Source of the DNA: Escherichia coli
Lineage (GTDB): Bacteria; Pseudomonadota; Gammaproteobacteria; Enterobacterales; Enterobacteriaceae
Assembly (NCBI RefSeq): GCF_041248615.1
Contig: NZ_CP158426.1
Strand: one strand, 5' to 3'
Length of the DNA: 64,000 bases
The notes beneath the pieces were generated by a model. It saw only the letters and a list, made by a program, of their open reading frames with translations. It was not told where the DNA came from and ran no database searches. Positions 10,468 to 60,056 of this stretch are shown here, piece after piece (the stretch's first letter is position 1; each line of letters opens with the position of its first letter). The translations under genes were made by a program, and so were the position numbers.

Positions 10468-10478
10468 TGGATTTGCCC

Positions 10479-11384
10479 CTATATTTCCAGACACCTGTTA
10501 TCACTTAACCCATTACTGGCCTGCTGCCGCAGATATTCCCGTGGCGAGCGATAACCCAGTGCACTATGCGGATGCCATTCGTTATAATGCTCGAACGCCT
10601 CTGCAAGGTTCTTTGCTGCCGTTAACCCGTCTGGTTTAGGCATGATACTGATGTAGTCACGCTTTATCGTTTTCACGAAGCTCTCTGCTATGCCGTTACT
10701 CTCCGGACTCCGCACCGCCGTGTTCTTCGGTTCAAGCCCCAATATCCGGGCAAACTGCCGTGTTTCATTAGCCCGGTAGCATGAACCATTATCCGTCAGC
10801 CACTCTACTGGAGACGCCGGAAGCTCGTTGCCGAAGCGGCGTTCCACCGCTCCCAGCATGACGTCCTGTACTGTTTCACTGTCGAAGCCGCCCGTAGTGA
10901 CTGCCCAGTGCAGTGCCTCACGGTCACAGCAGTCCAGCGCGAACGTGACTCGCAGTTTTTCTCCGTTATCACAGCGGAACTCGAACCCGTCAGAGCACCA
11001 TCGTTGATTGCTTTCTTTCACGGCCACTTTGCCAGTATGTGCCCGTTTCGATGGCGGTACAGCGGTTTTTCGCTCAAGCAACAGCGCATTCTGGCGCATG
11101 ATCCGGTAAACACGTTTGGCATTGATCGCAGGCGTACCATCAAGTTCGGCCTGTCTGCGAAGCAGCGCCCATACCCGACGATAACCATACGTGGGCAGCT
11201 CTCCGATAACATGGTGTATACGGAGAAGCACATCCGTATCATCTGAGTGACGGCTGCGGCGACCATCTTTCCAGTCATCGGTTCGTCTGAGAATTACGTG
11301 CAACTGCGCACGCGACACCCGGAGACAACGGCTGACTAAGCTTACTCCCCATCCCCGGGCAATAAGGGCGCGTGCGCTATCCAC
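10479..11384 (-). CDS. insD: IS2 OrfB (InsD), DDE transposase catalytic component
   Basis: 301-aa ORF starting [15 protein letters not shown]...; overlaps insC as expected for programmed -1 frameshifting in this family. Confidence 0.9.
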
Positions 11385-11707
11385 TTTTTTGCACGCCCGT
11401 ATTCAACGGCTTCTTTAAGGAGTTCATTTTCCATCGTTTTTTTGCCGAGCAGGCGCTGGAGTTCTTTAATCTGCTTCATGGCAGCAGCAAGTTCAGAGGC
11501 AGGAACGACCTGCTCTCCTGCGGCCACAGCAGTAAGACTTCCCTCCTGGTATTGCTTGCGCCAGAGAAATAACTGGCTGGCTGCCACACCGTGTTGCCGG
11601 GCAACAAGGGAGACCTTCATTCCCGGTTCAAAACTCTGCTGAACAATAGCGATCTTTTCCTGTGTAGTACGCCGTCTGCGTTTCTCCGGTCCTAAGACAT
11701 CAATCAT
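11342..11707 (-). CDS. insC: IS2 OrfA (InsC), helix-turn-helix transposase component
   Basis: ORF 11342..11752 trimmed to [13 protein letters not shown] (121 aa). Confidence 0.9.
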
Positions 11708-11798
11708 CTGCTCTCCAATGACTAGTCTAAAAACTAGTATTAAGACTATCACTTATTTAAGTGATATTGGTTGTCTGGAGATTCATGGGGCCAGTCTA

Positions 11799-11803
11799 CG
11801 GAG
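11799..11803. repeat. 5-bp target-site duplication (CGGAG), right copy
   Basis: Matches the left copy at 10463..10467. Confidence 0.7.
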
Positions 11804-50344: not shown

Positions 50345-50604
50345 GTGAAGTGTCCCAGCCTGTTTATCTACGGCTTAAAAAGTGTTCGAGGGGAAAATAG
50401 GTTGCGCGAGATTATAGAGATCTGGCGCACTAAAAACCAGTATTTCACATGAGTCCGCGTCTTTTTACGCACTGCCTCTCCCTGACGCGGGATAAAGTGG
50501 TATTCTCAAACATATCTCGCAAGCCTGTCTTGTGTTGACAACATTTTCTGCTAACCCTGTGACCTGCAATACTGTTTTGCGGGTGATCGACAAGGAGACT
50601 TAAC

Positions 50605-52062
50605 GTGTCTGAACTGTCTCAATTATCTCCACAGCCGCTGTGGGATATTTTTGCCAAAATCTGTTCTATTCCTCACCCGTCCTATCATGAAGAGCAACTC
50701 GCTGAATACATTGTTGGTTGGGCAAAAGAGAAAGGTTTCCATGTCGAACGCGATCAGGTAGGTAATATCCTGATTCGTAAACCTGCTACCGCAGGTATGG
50801 AAAATCGTAAACCGGTCGTCTTGCAGGCCCACCTCGATATGGTGCCACAGAAAAATAACGACACCGTGCATGACTTCACTAAAGATCCTATCCAGCCTTA
50901 TATTGATGGCGAATGGGTTAAAGCGCGCGGCACCACGCTGGGTGCGGATAACGGCATTGGTATGGCGTCTGCGCTGGCGGTTCTGGCTGACGAAAACGTG
51001 GTTCACGGCCCGCTGGAAGTGCTGCTGACCATGACCGAAGAAGCCGGTATGGATGGTGCTTTTGGCTTACAGAGCAACTGGTTGCAGGCTGATATTCTGA
51101 TTAACACCGACTCCGAAGAGGAAGGTGAAATCTACATGGGTTGCGCGGGGGGTATCGACTTCACCTCCAACCTGCATTTAGATCGTGAAGCGGTTCCAGC
51201 TGGTTTTGAAACCTTCAAGTTAACCTTAAAAGGCCTGAAAGGCGGTCACTCCGGCGGTGAAATCCACGTTGGCCTGGGTAATGCCAACAAACTGCTGGTG
51301 CGCTTCCTGGCGGGTCATGCAGAAGAGCTGGACCTGCGCCTTATCGATTTCAACGGTGGCACACTGCGTAACGCCATCCCGCGTGAAGCCTTTGCGACCA
51401 TTGCTGTCGCAGCTGATAAAGTCGACGCCCTGAAATCTCTGGTGAATACCTATCAGGAGATCCTGAAAAACGAGCTGGCAGAGAAAGAGAAAAATCTGGC
51501 ATTGCTGCTGGACTCTGTTGCGAACGATAAAGCTGCCCTGATTGCGAAATCTCGCGATACCTTTATTCGTCTGCTGAACGCCACCCCGAACGGTGTGATC
51601 CGCAATTCCGATGTGGCAAAAGGTGTGGTGGAAACCTCCCTGAACGTCGGTGTGGTGACCATGACTGACAATAACGTAGAAATTCACTGCCTGATCCGTT
51701 CTCTGATCGACAGCGGTAAAGACTACGTGGTGAGCATGCTGGATTCGCTGGGTAAACTGGCTGGCGCGAAAACCGAAGCGAAAGGCGCATATCCTGGCTG
51801 GCAGCCGGACGCTAATTCTCCGGTGATGCATCTGGTACGTGAAACTTATCAGCGTCTGTTCAACAAGACGCCGAACATCCAGATTATCCACGCGGGCCTG
51901 GAATGTGGTCTGTTCAAAAAACCGTATCCGGAAATGGACATGGTTTCTATCGGGCCAACAATCACCGGTCCACACTCTCCGGATGAGCAAGTTCACATCG
52001 AAAGCGTAGGTCATTACTGGACACTGCTGACTGAGCTGCTGAAAGAAATTCCGGCGAAGTAA
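50605..52062 (+). CDS. pepD: Cytosolic non-specific dipeptidase (aminoacyl-histidine dipeptidase)
   Basis: 485-aa ORF of the M20 peptidase family. Confidence 0.95.
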   Translation: MSELSQLSPQPLWDIFAKICSIPHPSYHEEQLAEYIVGWAKEKGFHVERDQVGNILIRKPATAGMENRKPVVLQAHLDMVPQKNNDTVHDFTKDPIQPYIDGEWVKARGTTLGADNGIGMASALAVLADENVVHGPLEVLLTMTEEAGMDGAFGLQSNWLQADILINTDSEEEGEIYMGCAGGIDFTSNLHLDREAVPAGFETFKLTLKGLKGGHSGGEIHVGLGNANKLLVRFLAGHAEELDLRLIDFNGGTLRNAIPREAFATIAVAADKVDALKSLVNTYQEILKNELAEKEKNLALLLDSVANDKAALIAKSRDTFIRLLNATPNGVIRNSDVAKGVVETSLNVGVVTMTDNNVEIHCLIRSLIDSGKDYVVSMLDSLGKLAGAKTEAKGAYPGWQPDANSPVMHLVRETYQRLFNKTPNIQIIHAGLECGLFKKPYPEMDMVSIGPTITGPHSPDEQVHIESVGHYWTLLTELLKEIPAK

Positions 52063-52118
52063 TTATTTGATTTGCTGCCGGATGGCGTTTAATCGCCTTC
52101 CGGCAGTTTCATCCTTCA

Positions 52119-52673
52119 TTATCCTTCGATAAAAGCCATCCCTGTAAATGTCCGTCTCGGGTTGCCACGTTCAATCTGGTGATGGAACATTCGCCGCCGC
52201 GATTTCAGCACCGCGCTATTTTCCTGTTGCTGTTGTTCCAGCGTCCAGGCAATCAGCAATCGCGCCAGCCGCTTGTTAGCATGCCCAGAAACAAGTTTTT
52301 GCGCCCATGATGAGGCCGATACGGACTCGGACAAATCCACTGAATAGTGCCGCACCAACTTTCGCTTAATGCCCATGCGTTATCGCCATCCAGAGAAATC
52401 AGCGCCGAACGCAGCGTGTCAGAGTAGCGGCCCGTTTCTGTTTCCAGCACCGTTACCGCGACGTCTTGCCGGGTAAAAACGACCAACAGAGAATAACGCT
52501 GCGCCAATCGGGTAGCCGCGTCCGGGGTGTAAATCTGGCATCCCTACTACGCGCTGCATGTTGGGTAAATTTGCCGTGGTGTGTAATTGTTGAATCGCTA
52601 AACTCTCGATCCACAGGTCATCAGATGCGATGGTAAATACCGCATCGGATAAGGGACGAATATATTTGCCCAT
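52119..52673 (-). pseudogene. prfH: Decayed RtcB-like ligase / release-factor-H (prfH) module: an RtcB N-terminal stub followed by frame-disrupted prfH pieces
   Basis: ORF 52419..52673 begins like RtcB (MGKYIRPLSDAVF...[10 protein letters not shown]) then breaks off; ORFs 52253..52507 and 52119..52376 carry release-factor-like segments in two different frames. Confidence 0.6.
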
Positions 52674-52917
52674 GTATCATTCCATTTATACTCGTCATAC
52701 TTCAAGTTGCATGTACTGCGACTCGAATTATTTAGAGTATATAAATATAAAAATCAGGAAATGGCAGACGAATCCAGGGCAAGAAAAAAGAATTAATCCT
52801 GGAAAGGTCTGCAAAGAGTCATTGATAAAGGATTTGTCATGATTTACCTCCTTGCAGTTTGTGGAATAAGAAAACGCGCACATACCAGGCGGGCGTTATT
52901 TTCATTGCAAGCTGGAT

Positions 52918-53370
52918 TTAATGTTGCGGTTTATATCGCATAGAAAAATTAGTAAACCACGCTCCCCTGCATTCAACGCGCTGCTGCTTAACTGTCTGAA
53001 AACCATAACGTTCAAAAAAGGGTTTTGCGGTTATGCTGGCGTCCACTGTAAGTTCGGATTCAGACTTAATCAAAGGTTTTAACAAAGCGCTGGCAACCCC
53101 ACGGCGGGTGTATTCAGGGTCAACAAATAACATATCGATATAGTGTTCAACGCAGGTAATAAAGCCGACCAGTTTTGCATTAATGACTGCAACCCGCACT
53201 TGTGATTTCGCGAGTTTCTCCTTCCAGCGAGATTCGTCAATCTGCGCCCAGGCGGCAATTTGTTGTGGTGAATAATGCTGACTGGCGGTCATCGTAACCG
53301 CTCTAATGAAAATAGCGCATAGTTGCTGAAAATCGCCAGGCTGATAATCTCTTATTTGTATGTTATTCAT
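52918..53370 (-). CDS. yafP: GNAT-family acetyltransferase of the dinB operon
   Basis: 150-aa ORF. Confidence 0.85.
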   Translation of the reverse strand: MNNIQIRDYQPGDFQQLCAIFIRAVTMTASQHYSPQQIAAWAQIDESRWKEKLAKSQVRVAVINAKLVGFITCVEHYIDMLFVDPEYTRRGVASALLKPLIKSESELTVDASITAKPFFERYGFQTVKQQRVECRGAWFTNFSMRYKPQH

Positions 53371-53379
53371 AATATAAAT

Positions 53380-53778
53380 TCAAAAACGCATGCGAAACGC
53401 TTCTGCCATTTTTCCAATTTTATGCATTTGGTTGTTATCTCGAGCCAGTTTATGAGGTTCAGGCTTCAGAATGGCAATGAGCAACCATGCTTGCTCATCA
53501 AACGCCCCCTGACAATATACCAAATGCGCTTCGTCATTCGTTCTGCTGAATTGGCGCAACTGTGGCGGAAATGGATTATTCACATTTGCCAGATGAATAT
53601 GAGCAACTCGCTCAAATTTGATTAATGGCCAGGTAAACGAGTCGTCGTAGAGTGCATCGCGACCAAATATATCTGGCAAAATACCGTCACGCTTATAGGA
53701 AATAAAATCCGCCGTTAACGCATCAAGTTCCTCTGCTGTAAGTTGCAGGCGAATAAGTTTTGTTTTGAATACCCGCAT
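53380..53778 (-). CDS. yafO: Ribosome-dependent mRNA interferase toxin
   Basis: 132-aa ORF directly downstream of yafN. Confidence 0.85.
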   Translation of the reverse strand: MRVFKTKLIRLQLTAEELDALTADFISYKRDGILPDIFGRDALYDDSFTWPLIKFERVAHIHLANVNNPFPPQLRQFSRTNDEAHLVYCQGAFDEQAWLLIAILKPEPHKLARDNNQMHKIGKMAEAFRMRF

Positions 53779-53780
53779 CC

Positions 53781-54074
53781 TTATTCCTTAAAGTCATTGA
53801 AATCATCATCCGTCATATCATTAAGATATTGTTCAGCGCGGCGTGTAATTTCCTCTAATCTTGCAGCACTCGGACGGAAGCGCGCCTTTATGGGCTTTTT
53901 CTCCTCTTGTTCAGCAAGCATGTCCATTAACGCTTCGAATGCGCTGGCACTTAAGAGATATCCTGCGGGGCGATTATTAGAAAGAACCGCAACCGGTTGA
54001 TCAATAAAGTATTTAGCTGGGTTTTTACGTAACTCAGTGATATTGACCGATTTTTCAGCGAGAATTCGATGCAT
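53781..54074 (-). CDS. yafN: Antitoxin of the YafN-YafO pair (Phd/YefM-like)
   Basis: 97-aa ORF. Confidence 0.85.
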   Translation of the reverse strand: MHRILAEKSVNITELRKNPAKYFIDQPVAVLSNNRPAGYLLSASAFEALMDMLAEQEEKKPIKARFRPSAARLEEITRRAEQYLNDMTDDDFNDFKE

Positions 54075-54125
54075 ACAGTGATCCCCTCATAATAATGCAC
54101 ACCAGAATAGACATAATAGTATACA

Positions 54126-55181
54126 TCATAATCCCAGCACCAGTTGTCTTTCCATTTGAGGGTCAAGCAACGTCACATGCAGCCCCACCAGTCGCACACC
54201 GCGCCCGCCGCGGCGTTCATCCCAGGTTTTACGCGCGGTGGCGATTAGATCAGCTTTATTCAGCCGCGGCCAGACGTGCTCCTGAGTAGTTTGCTGAAAA
54301 TCGTCGAACTTTAATTTCACCCCCTGGCGAGCAATCAGTAAATCAGGTTTTACTTTTGCCAGACGACGTTCAAGTTCCGGATACAGCCGCTCGATAATCG
54401 CTTCACATTCAGACCAGTGATGAATATCTTCCGCCATCGTGCGTTCCACGCCGACAGATTTTCGCAACCGTTCGCTGTTAACGTCGCGCTCGTCAATCCC
54501 CTGACTACGCTCCCACAAAATGCGGCCAAATTTGCCAAAACGTTTGAGCAGAGTCACCAGATCACACTTTTGCACATCACCGCAGGTCCGCAGCCCCATC
54601 GCTTCCAGTTTTGCCGCCGAGACTTTGCCGACGCCGGGGATTTTTGCCAGCGGTAAGGTTTGTAAAAATGTCGGAACTTCTGCCGGCGTAATCACAAACT
54701 GGCCGTTGGGTTTATTCATGTCGGAGGCGATTTTGGCGAGAAACTTTACTGGTGCCACGCCCGCAGACGCCGTCAGTTGCAGCTCGTTGAAGATTGTCTG
54801 GCGGATTTCCTGGGCGATGAGGGTCGCAGAACCGTGGCAATGGACGCTATCAGTGACATCGAGATAGGCTTCATCCAGTGACAACGGTTCAATACGCGAG
54901 GTGTAGCGCGAGAAGATTTCACGGATATGATTTGAGGCTTCTTTGTAGGCGTCAAAGCGCCCCGGAAGCAAGGTGAGATGTGGGCATAATTTGAGCGCCA
55001 TCCCTGTCGGCATAGCGCTACGTACGCCAAATTTACGCGCGGGATAATTGGCGGTGCTGATCACCCCCCGACGTTCGCGGCTGCCGCCAATAGCAATAGG
55101 GATATCGCGCAGGGCGGGATTGTCGCGCATCTCCACTGCGGCGAAAAAGCAGTCCATATCCACATGAATGATTTTACGCAT
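54126..55181 (-). CDS. dinB: DNA polymerase IV (Y-family translesion polymerase)
   Basis: 351-aa ORF starting [17 protein letters not shown]. Confidence 0.95.
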
Positions 55182-55197
55182 TGCTCACCTCTCAACA

Positions 55198-55213
55198 CTG
55201 GTAAAGTATACAG
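55198..55213. promoter_or_regulatory. LexA box (CTG-N10-CAG: ctggtaaagtatacag) in the dinB promoter
   Basis: Palindromic SOS-box-like sequence about 17-32 bp upstream of the dinB start codon. Confidence 0.75.
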
Positions 55214-55251
55214 TGATTTCAGGGTTTGAGAAATGCGTAAAGATTCAGCAT

Positions 55252-56175
55252 CTAGCGCGTTCGCTGCGAAAGCACCTGCTGCTTATCCAGCTTTTGCACC
55301 AGCGGCTGCACCACTTTATCCCCATGCTGACCAAAGTATTGATACAGCGTATCGGACGCACTTTTGGTCAGCACCATAATCTCAATGCGTCGGTTGCCCG
55401 CGCTTTGCGGATTTTTGGCATCCAGCAGCATCTGGTCCGCCATTGCGCTTACCTGCATCACTTTATCTTCCGGCATTCCAGCCTCTTCCAGCACCCGACG
55501 GGCCGAAAGCGCGCGATCGCCCGAAAGGTTCCAGTTGTTGTAGATATTGTTTTTGTAGGCCATCGCATCGGTATGCCCGGTGATGATGATCTTATTGTCG
55601 AGCGAATCAAAAACCGGCGCTAACTCCACCAGCAAAGTTTTAAAGAACGGCATAATCTGCGCGCTGCCGCGTTCAAACATATTGCGGTTCTGGTCATCTT
55701 TAATCAGCACGCGCAGTCCCTGGGGAACAATCTCCATCTCCAGATTCGCTTCCATATGCGCATCACGGGCGATGGTGTTGATACTGGTTGCCAGCTCACC
55801 AAGCTCAGTAGCGGATTTCTTCTTCAGCAGCGCCGTTTTCTCATTGACGTCACGCGCTTTTTTCTCCGTCTCTTCCGGCACCGCCACGGTGGCAGGTTTT
55901 GGCGGATGAGACGGGCTGATTTTATTTAACGGCGACAACCCGCCGCCATTGAAAATCGACTGCCCGTGCAGCGCGGCGATAATGCTTTCACGCTCGGATT
56001 TACTGACGCTGTTGACAATCCACAGCGTCATAAACAGCGCCATCATTGCCAAAGTAAAGTCGGCGAACGCCACCTTCCACGCCCCGCCGTGGTGCCCGGC
56101 ATGATTCTTTTTGATCTGCCGCCGGACGATGGTGGTTTTTGCCCCACGCTCGCGGCGGTTGCCCGTCTTTCTCAT
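55252..56175 (-). CDS. lafU: Flag-2 lateral-flagellar stator protein, MotB-like
   Basis: ORF 55252..56208 trimmed to MRKTGNRRERG...; the start overlaps the lafT stop; MotB-like N-terminal helix and C-terminal OmpA-like domain. Confidence 0.8.
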   Translation of the reverse strand: MRKTGNRRERGAKTTIVRRQIKKNHAGHHGGAWKVAFADFTLAMMALFMTLWIVNSVSKSERESIIAALHGQSIFNGGGLSPLNKISPSHPPKPATVAVPEETEKKARDVNEKTALLKKKSATELGELATSINTIARDAHMEANLEMEIVPQGLRVLIKDDQNRNMFERGSAQIMPFFKTLLVELAPVFDSLDNKIIITGHTDAMAYKNNIYNNWNLSGDRALSARRVLEEAGMPEDKVMQVSAMADQMLLDAKNPQSAGNRRIEIMVLTKSASDTLYQYFGQHGDKVVQPLVQKLDKQQVLSQRTR

Positions 56176-56177
56176 GC

Positions 56178-57041
56178 TTATTCTTGCTCCAGCATCGCAT
56201 TCACCCACGCGTCGAGGTTGGCGAAGGTCGGTTTGGACGCCAGATGCAGCAGCTTACGCCCGGCGTCCACTGCCAGCAGCGTCGGTTTGCCGCCTGCCTG
56301 CGCCACCAGCACGGTGCGCACGCATTCCAGCAAAGAATGTTCTGCCCGCGCCTGTTGTTCCATGGCGTTGGCGAGCGGGTCCATCAGGCAGTAGCAGATA
56401 AAGACGCCTAAAAACGTCCCCACCAGCGCTGCCGCCACTTTCAGGCCAATCAGTGCGATAGAGCCGTCAATCGACTGCATGGTGATGATGATGCCCAACA
56501 CCGCCGCACAAATGCCAAACCCCGGCATCGCTTCGGCGGTACGTTGCAGCGAGCGCGACGGCGTTAGCAGCGACTCTTCCGCGGTGTCCAGTTCCTGATC
56601 GAGAATGCCTTCCAGTTCATGGGCGTCGATTTTACCCATCGCCATCAGGCGAAAGTTATCGGCAATAAAGGTCACCAGCCGCTTCTGGGTTAACACCAGC
56701 GGGTATTTCTGGAAAATGGTGCTCTCTTCCGGTTGCTCGATATGCTGATCCAGCATGCGCAGGCCGCCGTTTTGCACCATTTCGAGCAACTCATACAGGC
56801 ACATTAATAGCTGACGCTGAAACTCCGGCCCGAGCTGTTTTTTACTGATCACGCCTTTAATTTGATGAGCAATCTCTTTCAGCACATGTTTCGGATTACC
56901 AATAATCATCGCCCCGAAGCCCGCGCCTAAAATAATGATCATTTCCGCCGGTTGCCAGATAGCCACTAATTGCCCGCCCGCTTCAAAATAACCGCCAAAT
57001 ACGCAGCCGAGCACCACCAGTAAACCTAATATTTTTTGCAT
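56178..57041 (-). CDS. lafT: Flag-2 stator protein, MotA-like
   Basis: 287-aa four-helix membrane ORF. Confidence 0.8.
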   Translation of the reverse strand: MQKILGLLVVLGCVFGGYFEAGGQLVAIWQPAEMIIILGAGFGAMIIGNPKHVLKEIAHQIKGVISKKQLGPEFQRQLLMCLYELLEMVQNGGLRMLDQHIEQPEESTIFQKYPLVLTQKRLVTFIADNFRLMAMGKIDAHELEGILDQELDTAEESLLTPSRSLQRTAEAMPGFGICAAVLGIIITMQSIDGSIALIGLKVAAALVGTFLGVFICYCLMDPLANAMEQQARAEHSLLECVRTVLVAQAGGKPTLLAVDAGRKLLHLASKPTFANLDAWVNAMLEQE

Positions 57042-57053
57042 GATTTCTTCACT

Positions 57054-57773
57054 TTAATTCGGATAGACAAAATCACGAATTTTCTGCGCGATCTGTTTAT
57101 TCAGTTGACAAATACGGGCTTCGGTTAGCCCTAATACCAGCGCAATCTCTTTGAGATTCATCTCATGCTGGTAATACATGGAGAGGATCAGTTGCTCTTT
57201 TTCGCTTAATAGTGAAAGTGCGTGTTGCAGCATTTGCTGGGTGACAAACTGATCTTCCAGTTCCCTGCCAGCAAGTGGAATGCCTTGCCCTTCGCCGTTC
57301 AGCAGTTCGTCAAGGCTGGCGAGCGTTTCCGCCCCTTCCAGTTGCTGATATTCGAGATAATCTTCATGCGAGATCCCTTCCACGGCCAGTTCTGACCACT
57401 CAGGCTCGTGCCCCAGTTTTTTACGCGTTTCGCGAATCAGGTCTTTCATCTGATGATATTTCTGTCGCAGCTGGCGCGGTCGCCAGTCGAGAGCGCGCAG
57501 CTCATCCAGGATCGCGCCGCGAATACGGTGCACGGCATAGCCCGCAAAACCTTCGTCCGGCAGTCCGTAGCGGCGAATGGCATTAAGCAGCCCCATTAAC
57601 GCCGTTTGTTCCATATCCTGACGATCAATAATGCAATTACACTGCGGGGCAAGTTGCCGCACAACTTTACGCACCAGTGGTAAATAGGCCTGCAAGTAGT
57701 GGCTCTCCTGCTGCGGGGTTAATACCGGCGCGGCAGCAAATTCTTCTGACTCGAATAATACGTCCTGTAGCAT
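57054..57773 (-). CDS. lafS: Flag-2 flagellar sigma factor (FliA / sigma-28 family)
   Basis: 239-aa ORF with sigma-70-family regions 2 and 4. Confidence 0.8.
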   Translation of the reverse strand: MLQDVLFESEEFAAAPVLTPQQESHYLQAYLPLVRKVVRQLAPQCNCIIDRQDMEQTALMGLLNAIRRYGLPDEGFAGYAVHRIRGAILDELRALDWRPRQLRQKYHQMKDLIRETRKKLGHEPEWSELAVEGISHEDYLEYQQLEGAETLASLDELLNGEGQGIPLAGRELEDQFVTQQMLQHALSLLSEKEQLILSMYYQHEMNLKEIALVLGLTEARICQLNKQIAQKIRDFVYPN

Positions 57774-57792
57774 GTTTATATCCGCCTGGTGA

Positions 57793-58260
57793 TTACTGGA
57801 AGACCACTTTTTTCACCAGCAAATCCTTATATGGTGCGCTCATTTTGCGACGTTGAAGGTCTTTCTTTAACGCATCCGAAATCAGTTTGCGGATGGCAGA
57901 TATTTTCATGCCGCGCAAATCTTCAAATTTCATTTCCGTCAGGCATTCAACCGCAATACTTTGATACAGCGGCTCCTGATGTTTTATTTTTTCCGCTTCT
58001 TTGTCACTGGCGACCACCATCACTAATTCCGCCGACAAATAATGGTCCGCGCCGTTGTTGTCATGCAGCGTGACAATGGTTTCCGGCAACGTCACAAATA
58101 CGCTTTTGCTTTCATCCAGGGTTTCCACCGTTTCCGTCTGCGCGGCGGCAGTCGGTTTTCCTTTTCCGGCATAATGATGCCAGACACCCCATCCAGCTCC
58201 GGCCCCCACCACCAACGCCAGAACGGCGCTGACCACGCCCGCCACCACGATTTTCTTCAT
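57793..58260 (-). CDS. lafF: Flag-2 FliL-like basal-body-associated protein
   Basis: 155-aa ORF with a single N-terminal transmembrane helix. Confidence 0.7.
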   Translation of the reverse strand: MKKIVVAGVVSAVLALVVGAGAGWGVWHHYAGKGKPTAAAQTETVETLDESKSVFVTLPETIVTLHDNNGADHYLSAELVMVVASDKEAEKIKHQEPLYQSIAVECLTEMKFEDLRGMKISAIRKLISDALKKDLQRRKMSAPYKDLLVKKVVFQ

Positions 58261-58267
58261 ATTGCCT

Positions 58268-59329
58268 TTACACTTTGATCAAAACGGATTCGTTCTGTTG
58301 AAATTGAGGCGCATCATCAAGCTGTAAGGCGGCACTCACCTCTTCCTGCTGATGGCCCGACTGTTGTTGTTGCTGCGACTGCCCTTCGGAGGAAACCTGT
58401 ACGTTCACCTCCATAAAATTTTGCGCCGTCAGATGCTGGCGGAGATCGTCGCTAAACTGTTGTAACGCGCGGCAAACTTCACTTTGGTTCGCGCCGATGT
58501 GCACCATCAGTTTGCCGTTATCGAGTTGTACGACGATCTCGAGCTTGCCAAGCGACGGTGGATCGAGACGGATGGTGGAGATCTGCTGTTGTTTGTTGAG
58601 CTGAAAGTGGATCTGATCTTTCAACAGCGTCGTCAGTTTTTCGCCCAGTTCGTCCATTGAAAGCGTGGCTGGTTTGGCGACAATCTCCTGATGCTGGCTG
58701 ACCAGCTCCGGCGTCTTAACCTGCAACACCGCACGCGCAATAACCGGTTCGCTGTCCGGCACTTTTTCCGTTTTACGCTCGACCTGTGGGCGCGCGGTCA
58801 CACGGGTTAGTTCAGGTTTCGGGCGAGCGGGCTGTGTTGAGACGCGCGGCTGCGTCGGCGCAATGGCATGTAAATCTTCACTGGCGTAAGTCGCCAGCCT
58901 GGCCTGCTGTTCGGGTTTCGCCTGCGGCAACTGACCGATCAGCTCCTGCAACTGCGGCGGCAACGGCGTGAGTTCCTGCTGTTGCGTCGGGCGTTGCGGC
59001 GCTTTTTGCACCACCGCTTTCGTCACTTGCTGGATAACCGGCGATGTTGCGACGTTTCGCGGCTGCGGCGTGTCCTGATGCGGCGCGGTAGGTTGCGGAA
59101 GTAACAGCGCCATTAGCGCCTGCATCGCCACCGGATCGTTCTCCTGCGGGCGCGTCGCCTGTTGCTGACTGGTTTTAGCGCTATGAACGCGCTCCGCCAC
59201 CGCCGCGACCGCCATTTTCGGCAGGGTAAACGCGGGCGCGTTTTCACCGCTCACCGGCGGTAAAATACCCGTTTTCAGCGACGCCGTTTCCACAAGCGTT
59301 CCGAGCGTGGCAAGCAATGCCGGATTCAT
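58268..59329 (-). CDS. lafE: Flag-2 hook-length control protein (FliK-like)
   Basis: 353-aa Pro/Gln-rich ORF. Confidence 0.7.
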   Translation of the reverse strand: MNPALLATLGTLVETASLKTGILPPVSGENAPAFTLPKMAVAAVAERVHSAKTSQQQATRPQENDPVAMQALMALLLPQPTAPHQDTPQPRNVATSPVIQQVTKAVVQKAPQRPTQQQELTPLPPQLQELIGQLPQAKPEQQARLATYASEDLHAIAPTQPRVSTQPARPKPELTRVTARPQVERKTEKVPDSEPVIARAVLQVKTPELVSQHQEIVAKPATLSMDELGEKLTTLLKDQIHFQLNKQQQISTIRLDPPSLGKLEIVVQLDNGKLMVHIGANQSEVCRALQQFSDDLRQHLTAQNFMEVNVQVSSEGQSQQQQQSGHQQEEVSAALQLDDAPQFQQNESVLIKV

Positions 59330-59637
59330 GACTTCTCCGAAAGTAAATTAACAATTGAGTAGGCCAGTACGCCTTCCTGATGCCGCTGATGCTGTTCCAT
59401 ACGCGCCTTCAACACTTCTGCACGCTGCTCGCGCCGTTTAATCAGGGCATTAAACGCGCCGTACAGCTGCGCCTTCACCGCACACAACTGCGCCGCGTCG
59501 GTTTCCGCCGCCACGTAATCGTGAAACTGGCGCATCAACTGCTGATGCAGTGCCGGAAGCCGTCGCCAGCGTTGCTTGTCGAGGGCTTCGTTCATCGCCT
59601 CAACCAGTGCGAAAAGTTGCCTGCGTTGTTTTTCCAT
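59326..59637 (-). CDS. lafD: Flag-2 FliT-like export chaperone
   Basis: 103-aa helical ORF located between the FliS-like and FliK-like genes. Confidence 0.6.
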   Translation of the reverse strand: MEKQRRQLFALVEAMNEALDKQRWRRLPALHQQLMRQFHDYVAAETDAAQLCAVKAQLYGAFNALIKRREQRAEVLKARMEQHQRHQEGVLAYSIVNLLSEKS

Positions 59638-59641
59638 CGTC

Positions 59642-60034
59642 TTAACCCAGCTTGCCCGAAAGCCCTTCCCAGCCTTCGCGCAGGTTACTTAAGATCAGCA
59701 TCACTTCATCGATTTTCTCTGCCGACAGTTCGCCGCTGGCTTCATACAATCGGTAAACGCAGTGGTCATAGAGGCGCGAAAGGTTGACCACCAGCTCGCC
59801 GCCGGTTTCAAACTCCAGCGAACTGGTGAGCGCATTGAGAATGTCGATGCATTTATTGATGCTCTGGGCTTTCTTCTCGAAACGCCGCCCTTCAATATGG
59901 CTTTTGGCGCGTTCCAGCTCGTCCATCAGGCCAGAAAACAGCACCAGCACCAGTTCCAGAGGCGATGCCGCCGCGGTACGCGCCGCGAGATCGATCTCTT
60001 TATATTGCGAATAGCCGTCCTGTACATGGTACAT
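59642..60034 (-). CDS. lafC: Flag-2 flagellin-specific chaperone (FliS-like)
   Basis: 130-aa ORF. Confidence 0.8.
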   Translation of the reverse strand: MYHVQDGYSQYKEIDLAARTAAASPLELVLVLFSGLMDELERAKSHIEGRRFEKKAQSINKCIDILNALTSSLEFETGGELVVNLSRLYDHCVYRLYEASGELSAEKIDEVMLILSNLREGWEGLSGKLG

Positions 60035-60056
60035 CTTTAGGGATATTCCTTCTGAG

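Follow-up and report, generated by a model that had tools for sequence, protein, structure and literature searches.

The window analyzed here, a 64,000-nt stretch of Escherichia coli DNA, carries the decayed remnant of an rtcB2-prfH module at positions 52119-52673 on the minus strand, flanked by pepD (50605-52062, plus strand) and the GNAT gene yafP (52918-53370, minus strand). The gene order around the remnant is phoE, crl, frsA, gpt, pepD, remnant, yafP, yafO, yafN, dinB, and lafU. The minus strand of 52119-52673 contains three short open reading frames (ORFs) with partial matches to RtcB or release_prfH in Pfam and NCBIfam. Strain 503829 has an intact operon; as tblastn queries against the 64-kb window, its RtcB2 (379 aa) and PrfH (204 aa) matched the three pieces of the remnant at levels well outside those expected by chance, and no further significant match was found within the window. 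What is retained comprises RtcB2 codons 1-69 of 379, PrfH codons 31-93, and, in another frame, PrfH codons 150-204, amounting to 555 of the 1,751 nt of the intact module, spread over three frames. The synteny of pepD, prfH-rtcB, and yafP was identical in intact and decayed genomes. A 20-kb portion of the window (44082-64000) was 100% identical to the chromosome of E. coli NRZ14408 (NZ_LT599825.1). In this genome and in strain 7/2 (NZ_CP023820.1), PGAP annotates a prfH pseudogene ('frameshifted; incomplete; missing N-terminus') corresponding to window positions 52119-52471 and an 'RNA ligase RtcB family protein' pseudogene corresponding to 52467-52673. The preliminary description of this DNA, which placed an RtcB N-terminal stub and prfH pieces between pepD and yafP, was thus borne out by tblastn, NCBIfam, and the PGAP pseudogenes.

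The rtcB2 remnant, equivalent to ykfJ, spans 52467-52673 on the minus strand and corresponds to nt 1-207 of 1,140 (aa 1-69 of 379), with the start codon intact. In the tblastn search, RtcB2 aa 1-69 aligned to 52673-52467 in frame -3 with 67 of 69 residues identical (E 4e-40); this identity to the intact N-terminus, the position next to prfH, and the conserved synteny establish its descent from rtcB2. The ORF itself is 84 aa long (52419-52673), running for 15 out-of-frame codons through prfH DNA to a stop at 52419. Against full-length family models the stub scored below every cut-off: 106.2 bits on positions 1-69 of 379 of NF007153 (cut-off 407), 99.6 bits on TIGR03073 (271.8), and 23.4 on Pfam PF01139 (27), whereas the intact RtcB2 orthologue reached 636.4 bits on NF007153. 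By the standard of a full-length match above the curated cut-off, the stub is therefore not a member of the RtcB2 family. Nothing of rtcB2 is encoded past nt 207, and the catalytic H294 (the guanylylation site) is gone together with the rest of the active site.

Two pieces of prfH follow. Fragment 1 (52285-52473, minus strand) corresponds to prfH nt 92-280, codons 31-93, is read in a frame other than that of the stub, and lacks its own start codon; PrfH aa 26-95 aligned to 52489-52280 in frame -1 (E 7e-40), with true homology starting at aa 31. Fragment 2 (52119-52284, minus strand) corresponds to nt 450-615, codons 150-204 plus the TAA stop, and is frame-shifted relative to fragment 1; PrfH aa 149-204 aligned to 52289-52122 in frame -3 with 53 of 56 residues identical (E 4e-31). 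On TIGR03072 (release_prfH), for which the cut-off is 166.65 bits, fragment 1 scored 86.2 bits (positions 31-94 of 200) and fragment 2 scored 57.1 bits (positions 143-200 of 200), as against 329.7 bits for the intact orthologue, so that neither fragment qualifies as PrfH by a full-length match above the curated cut-off. The GGQ motif with its Q122 is absent, as aa 120-122 of the intact protein fall within a 169-nt deletion. Instead of a single PrfH frame coupled to rtcB2 by an overlapping ATGA, the window holds pieces in frames -1 and -3, the start and codons 1-30 having been deleted. In the table of variable sites, W91L in fragment 1 and K164T and Q179R in fragment 2 were private to the window, and F60L was common to the window remnant and one other allele.

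Alignment with intact rtcB-prfH loci, which had been proposed at the outset as a way to map the damage, revealed two nested deletions of 1,027 and 169 nt. The aligned pepD-yafP intervals measured 855 nt in the window, 2,052 nt in the intact strain 503829, 1,025 nt in FT130, and 1,097 nt in EC2641; the last of these is K-12's length, and EC2641 and FT130 represent intermediate states. Breakpoints were printed base by base for five intact alleles (503829, HM670, eco-241, EC11, and L1PEag1). The junction of the larger deletion, deletion 1, lies at 52467-52474 (minus strand), where a single ACCCGGCA is left of an imperfect 8-nt direct repeat; in four of the five intact alleles, the two copies are ACCCGGCA at rtcB2 nt 200-207 and ACCCGACA at prfH nt 91-98. 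Deletion 1 fuses rtcB2 nt 207 to prfH nt 99 and removes rtcB2 nt 208-1140 together with prfH nt 1-98 or, equivalently, nt 201-1140 together with nt 1-91. Lost with it are RtcB2 from codon 70 on, the stop/start overlap of both genes, and PrfH codons 1-30. The junction sequence in K-12 MG1655 was identical to that of the window. At the mismatched repeat position, the rtcB-side G was present in the window, K-12, 2014C-3338, and SCU-102, and the prfH-side A in EC2641 and FT130, reflecting either a later transition or, less likely, independent events. Over the 555 retained positions, the deleted alleles differed from one another about as much as intact alleles do, indicating that deletion 1 either is old or has been spread by recombination.

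Deletion 2 removed prfH nt 281-449 (codons 94-150) and left, at 52281-52284 on the minus strand, a single GCAT of a 4-nt direct repeat; GCAT was present at both breakpoints in four of the five intact alleles. The missing DNA encodes SSGPGGQHVNKT, which includes G120-G121-Q122, the GGQ motif with the catalytic Q122. Since 169 is not divisible by three, the C-terminal PrfH fragment is out of frame (+1). Thus, the view that the prfH pieces are frame-shifted holds insofar as they lie in different frames, but the cause is this internal deletion and not small indels. All four inspected genomes with deletion 2 (NRZ14408, 7/2, 2014C-3338, and SCU-102) also have deletion 1, indicating that deletion 2 is nested within the deletion-1 background. 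Among the text passages of the PrfH literature that were searched, there was no mention of a second prfH deletion, and the passages from the 2026 PrfH literature contained nothing on truncated E. coli alleles.

We determined how common these states are among 5,426 complete E. coli genomes. With a 300-nt probe, the deletion-1 junction was found as one contiguous match in 2,653 genomes (49%), and the interior 1,027 nt were present in 2,715 (50%). The interior DNA occupied 2,758 places, six of them on plasmids, with some genomes having two places. An 80-nt junction-1 probe at E <= 1e-20 detected 1,931 genomes, a figure that we treated as an undercount relative to the 2,672 obtained by a joined-place criterion. 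The deletion-2 junction was detected with an 80-nt probe, at an E-value beyond the reach of half-matches, in 323 genomes (6%), once per genome and on the chromosome in every case.

The closest well-known counterpart is in K-12 MG1655, where ykfJ (b0235) and prfH (b0236) are pseudogenes at the matching yafP-pepD position. K-12 and the window have the matching 1,027-nt deletion with the junction TTTTTACCCGGCAAGACG and the RtcB stub; they differ at 15 of the 555 retained positions, and only the window has the additional 169-nt prfH deletion, with loss of GGQ and a shifted frame. According to Baranov et al. (2006, PMC1586002), prfH and the gene upstream of it in K-12 are recognizable as pseudogenes with a deletion of ~1,000 nt, common to K-12 and O157:H7 and absent in CFT073, 042, and UTI89. 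The intact module, as in ATCC 25922, CFT073, and 042 and, here, in 503829, HM670, eco-241, EC11, and L1PEag1, occupies the orthologous locus with the same flanks; its 1,140-nt rtcB2 overlaps the 615-nt prfH by 4 nt, its products pass the NCBIfam equivalog cut-offs and have H294 and Q122, and the window's retained segments are 94-98% identical to these alleles at the DNA level. In eco-241 and EC11 (L012 and L013, locus positions 105-614), a metal-dependent hydrolase gene, and not pepD, follows the intact prfH and the final PrfH codons differ, which shows that the locus also varies at its downstream boundary. The doubly deleted allele in RefSeq (NRZ14408, 7/2, 2014C-3338, and SCU-102) has the same structure as the window, with 207-nt RtcB and 353-nt prfH pseudogenes, and NRZ14408 and 7/2 were 100% identical to the window across the whole locus. 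Between strain 7/2 and the window, there was not a single mismatch over ~4.5 kb (51000-55500, covering the 3′ part of pepD, the remnant, yafPON, and dinB; L007/L008 in our set); outside this block, the flanks differed by 1-1.4%, and gene content diverged after 56020. This pattern suggests a shared recombination block carrying the doubly deleted allele. The locus is, then, already known as a pseudogene: RefSeq annotates exactly this allele, and its K-12 counterpart ykfJ/prfH is in the literature. The only increments made here are the breakpoint microhomologies, the second deletion removing GGQ, and the species-wide frequencies.

The former 5′ region of the operon, 244 nt between the yafP stop and the rtcB2 start (52674-52917, minus strand), contains at ~52687-52741 the outer inverted-repeat arms of an ERIC/IRU-like palindrome. 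K-12-type alleles (K-12 and EC2641) have 72 extra nt in this spacer, which the window does not, including an ERIC core that we recognized by what we take to be the ERIC1R/ERIC2 primer sequences; this core pattern was not found anywhere in the 64-kb window. The spacer alignment also showed a T7-to-T6 change. In an Rfam search no family reached threshold: isrH matched at 52685-52751, on the ERIC-like arms, with a sub-threshold 26.8 bits (gathering score 45), and two other matches had E ~0.3. A consensus scan of 51950-53000 found no sigma-70-like promoter, and two terminator-like matches were at chance level. On the other side of the remnant, in the convergent pepD/prfH intergenic region, RNA folding predicted a strong hairpin at 52074-52107 (-27.1 kcal/mol, z -6.9, 0 of 200 shuffles as stable). 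In the alignment, this hairpin was unchanged between intact and decayed alleles, and it is probably a transcription terminator, either shared or belonging to pepD.

The preliminary description stated that the intact module is thought to repair or rescue damaged ribosomes; this activity has since been demonstrated both in vitro and in vivo (PMC9304027, PMC9223846), the substrate being ribosomes cleaved in their 16S rRNA by toxins of the colicin E3 type. When the cut lies between A1493 and G1494, PrfH binds in the ribosomal A site and frees the peptide via Q122, after which RtcB2, with the catalytic H294, religates the 16S rRNA (Tian et al. 2022, PMC9304027). According to the same study, Q122N and Q122E abolish PrfH function, H294 is needed in RtcB2, RtcB1 and other rescue factors cannot substitute for the module, and the K-12 operon is inactivated by its deletion of ~1,000 nt. 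In experiments with colicin E3, ATCC 25922, which has an intact operon, was resistant, whereas BW25113, with the truncated operon, was sensitive, and knockouts of the truncated BW25113 genes were reported to have no effect under colicin E3 (Maviza et al. 2022, PMC9223846).

The region is almost certainly what remains of the two-gene rtcB2-prfH operon after decay in two steps, a pseudogene with no function. The anatomy, junctions, and population frequencies of this decay were read directly from the genomes; the conclusion that function has been lost is based on the missing catalytic residues and on the published experiments with the K-12-type allele. The probable loss of rescue capacity put forward earlier is accordingly supported, with the catalytic centers of both RtcB2 and PrfH physically missing. 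In the first step, a deletion between ACCCGGCA and ACCCGACA would have joined codon 69 of rtcB2, out of frame, to codon 33 of prfH, with loss of the catalytic core of RtcB2, the stop/start overlap, and the N-terminus of PrfH, a state common to K-12, O157:H7, and about half of E. coli. In the second step, seen in ~6% of genomes, a GCAT-flanked deletion would have taken PrfH codons 94-150, among them those for the GGQ peptidyl-tRNA hydrolase motif, and put the remainder out of frame. Both deletions carry the signature of slipped-strand or microhomology-mediated events, a mechanism that we infer. Having the same deletion as K-12 plus the loss of GGQ, the window allele would not be expected to outperform the K-12 allele. 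With the two enzymes of the dedicated repair module both destroyed, an NRZ14408-like strain should match K-12 in its sensitivity to colicin E3 or to 16S rRNA cleavage of the CdiA-CT(ECL) type. The importance of this allele goes little beyond correct annotation.

The broken frames could in principle be a sequencing or assembly artefact in genes that are really continuous, an eventuality that the preliminary description had left to resequencing. Given that ~1.2 kb of coding DNA is absent, and not a base or two, that junction 2 is contiguous in 323 and junction 1 in 2,653 independent complete genomes, and that K-12 MG1655 shares the deletion-1 junction, we consider an artefact excluded for practical purposes. 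A full-length copy elsewhere had likewise been named as a finding that would overturn the loss. The locus itself could be dead and the capacity kept by an rtcB2-prfH copy on a plasmid or island, or by RtcB1 of rtcBA with other rescue factors; extra copies do occur rarely in the species, as the six plasmid-borne places among 2,758 and the genomes with two places attest. However, a 20-kb window query including the 555 nt of rtcB2/prfH matched one place only in NRZ14408, an 855-nt locus query matched one place only in strain 7/2, and there was no other match within the 64-kb window. These searches revealed no second rtcB2/prfH copy of at least ~85% nucleotide identity in NRZ14408 or strain 7/2, nor any near-identical one in the window. 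We regard this alternative as very unlikely.

It is likewise very unlikely that the remnant has been co-opted, with the 84-aa stub ORF, one of the PrfH fragments, or a locus-encoded RNA having acquired a new function that would explain its persistence in half of E. coli. In favor of co-option, the rtcB2 start codon is intact, as are the first 69 codons, which show 97% identity to those of functional alleles, the remnant is kept in 2,653 genomes, and a codon-position test gave no significant sign of relaxed constraint: the ratio of private changes at the first two codon positions to those at the third was 7:7 in deleted and 8:21 in intact alleles, a difference in the expected direction but not significant (Fisher p = 0.18). 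This comparison was made on explicit segment coordinates, as global MAFFT alignment placed the 200-nt stub wrongly across the large gap. Against such a function, the stub is without any catalytic residue and ends in 15 out-of-frame residues, the private changes W91L, K164T, and Q179R are non-synonymous, as is F60L, common to one other allele, and one lineage has tolerated the additional 169-nt loss. Neither a promoter-like site nor an Rfam family at threshold was detected at the locus. Moreover, the K-12 PrfH fragment went into inclusion bodies when expressed, according to a reviewer of Baranov et al. (2006, PMC1586002), and the BW25113 truncated-gene knockouts had no reported colicin E3 phenotype (PMC9223846).

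The proportions of 49% deleted, 50% interior-retaining, and 6% doubly deleted genomes offer a possible lineage marker or a starting point for studying a polymorphic defence. A further reading, which we regard as doubtful, is that rtcB2-prfH is a recurrently or selectively lost defence standing at about 50:50 presence and absence across E. coli. If this were true, the pattern would speak for a deletion hot spot, or for a module that costs fitness where colicin E3 producers are absent, and not for a single neutral accident; the G and A junctions could then have arisen in separate deletion events, each resolved on a different side of the repeat mismatch, and the 169-nt deletion would be continued erosion in one lineage.

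Other parts of the window also vary among strains. The yafN-yafO toxin-antitoxin pair (53380-54074) was present in the window, K-12, 7/2, and FT130 and absent in EC2641, 503829, 2014C-3338, and HM670, where yafP abuts or overlaps dinB; this presence/absence polymorphism adjoins that of rtcB2-prfH. Further along, 55252-64000 covers the first part of what appears to be an intact Flag-2 lateral-flagella cluster, with lafU (encoding a 318-aa MotB/OmpA-like protein), motA, a FliA-type sigma factor gene, fliL, fliK, fliS, fliD, the lateral flagellin gene lafA (61578-62558), and a winged-helix regulator gene (62927-63820). K-12-like genomes and strain 7/2 have, of Flag-2, just lafU fused to an flhA remnant. 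A 1.3-kb segment of the window (10469-11800) that is missing from 7/2 carries an IS3-family transposase gene (rve/HTH_21; ORF 10479-11384, minus strand). At the thrW (tRNA-Thr, ~44151-44226) integration site (window 43556-44226), strain 7/2 has an island of ~6.4 kb that the window is without (L007 19865-26245), encoding an integrase remnant, a 1,069-aa RNA-directed DNA polymerase, and an AbiEi/AbiEii pair.
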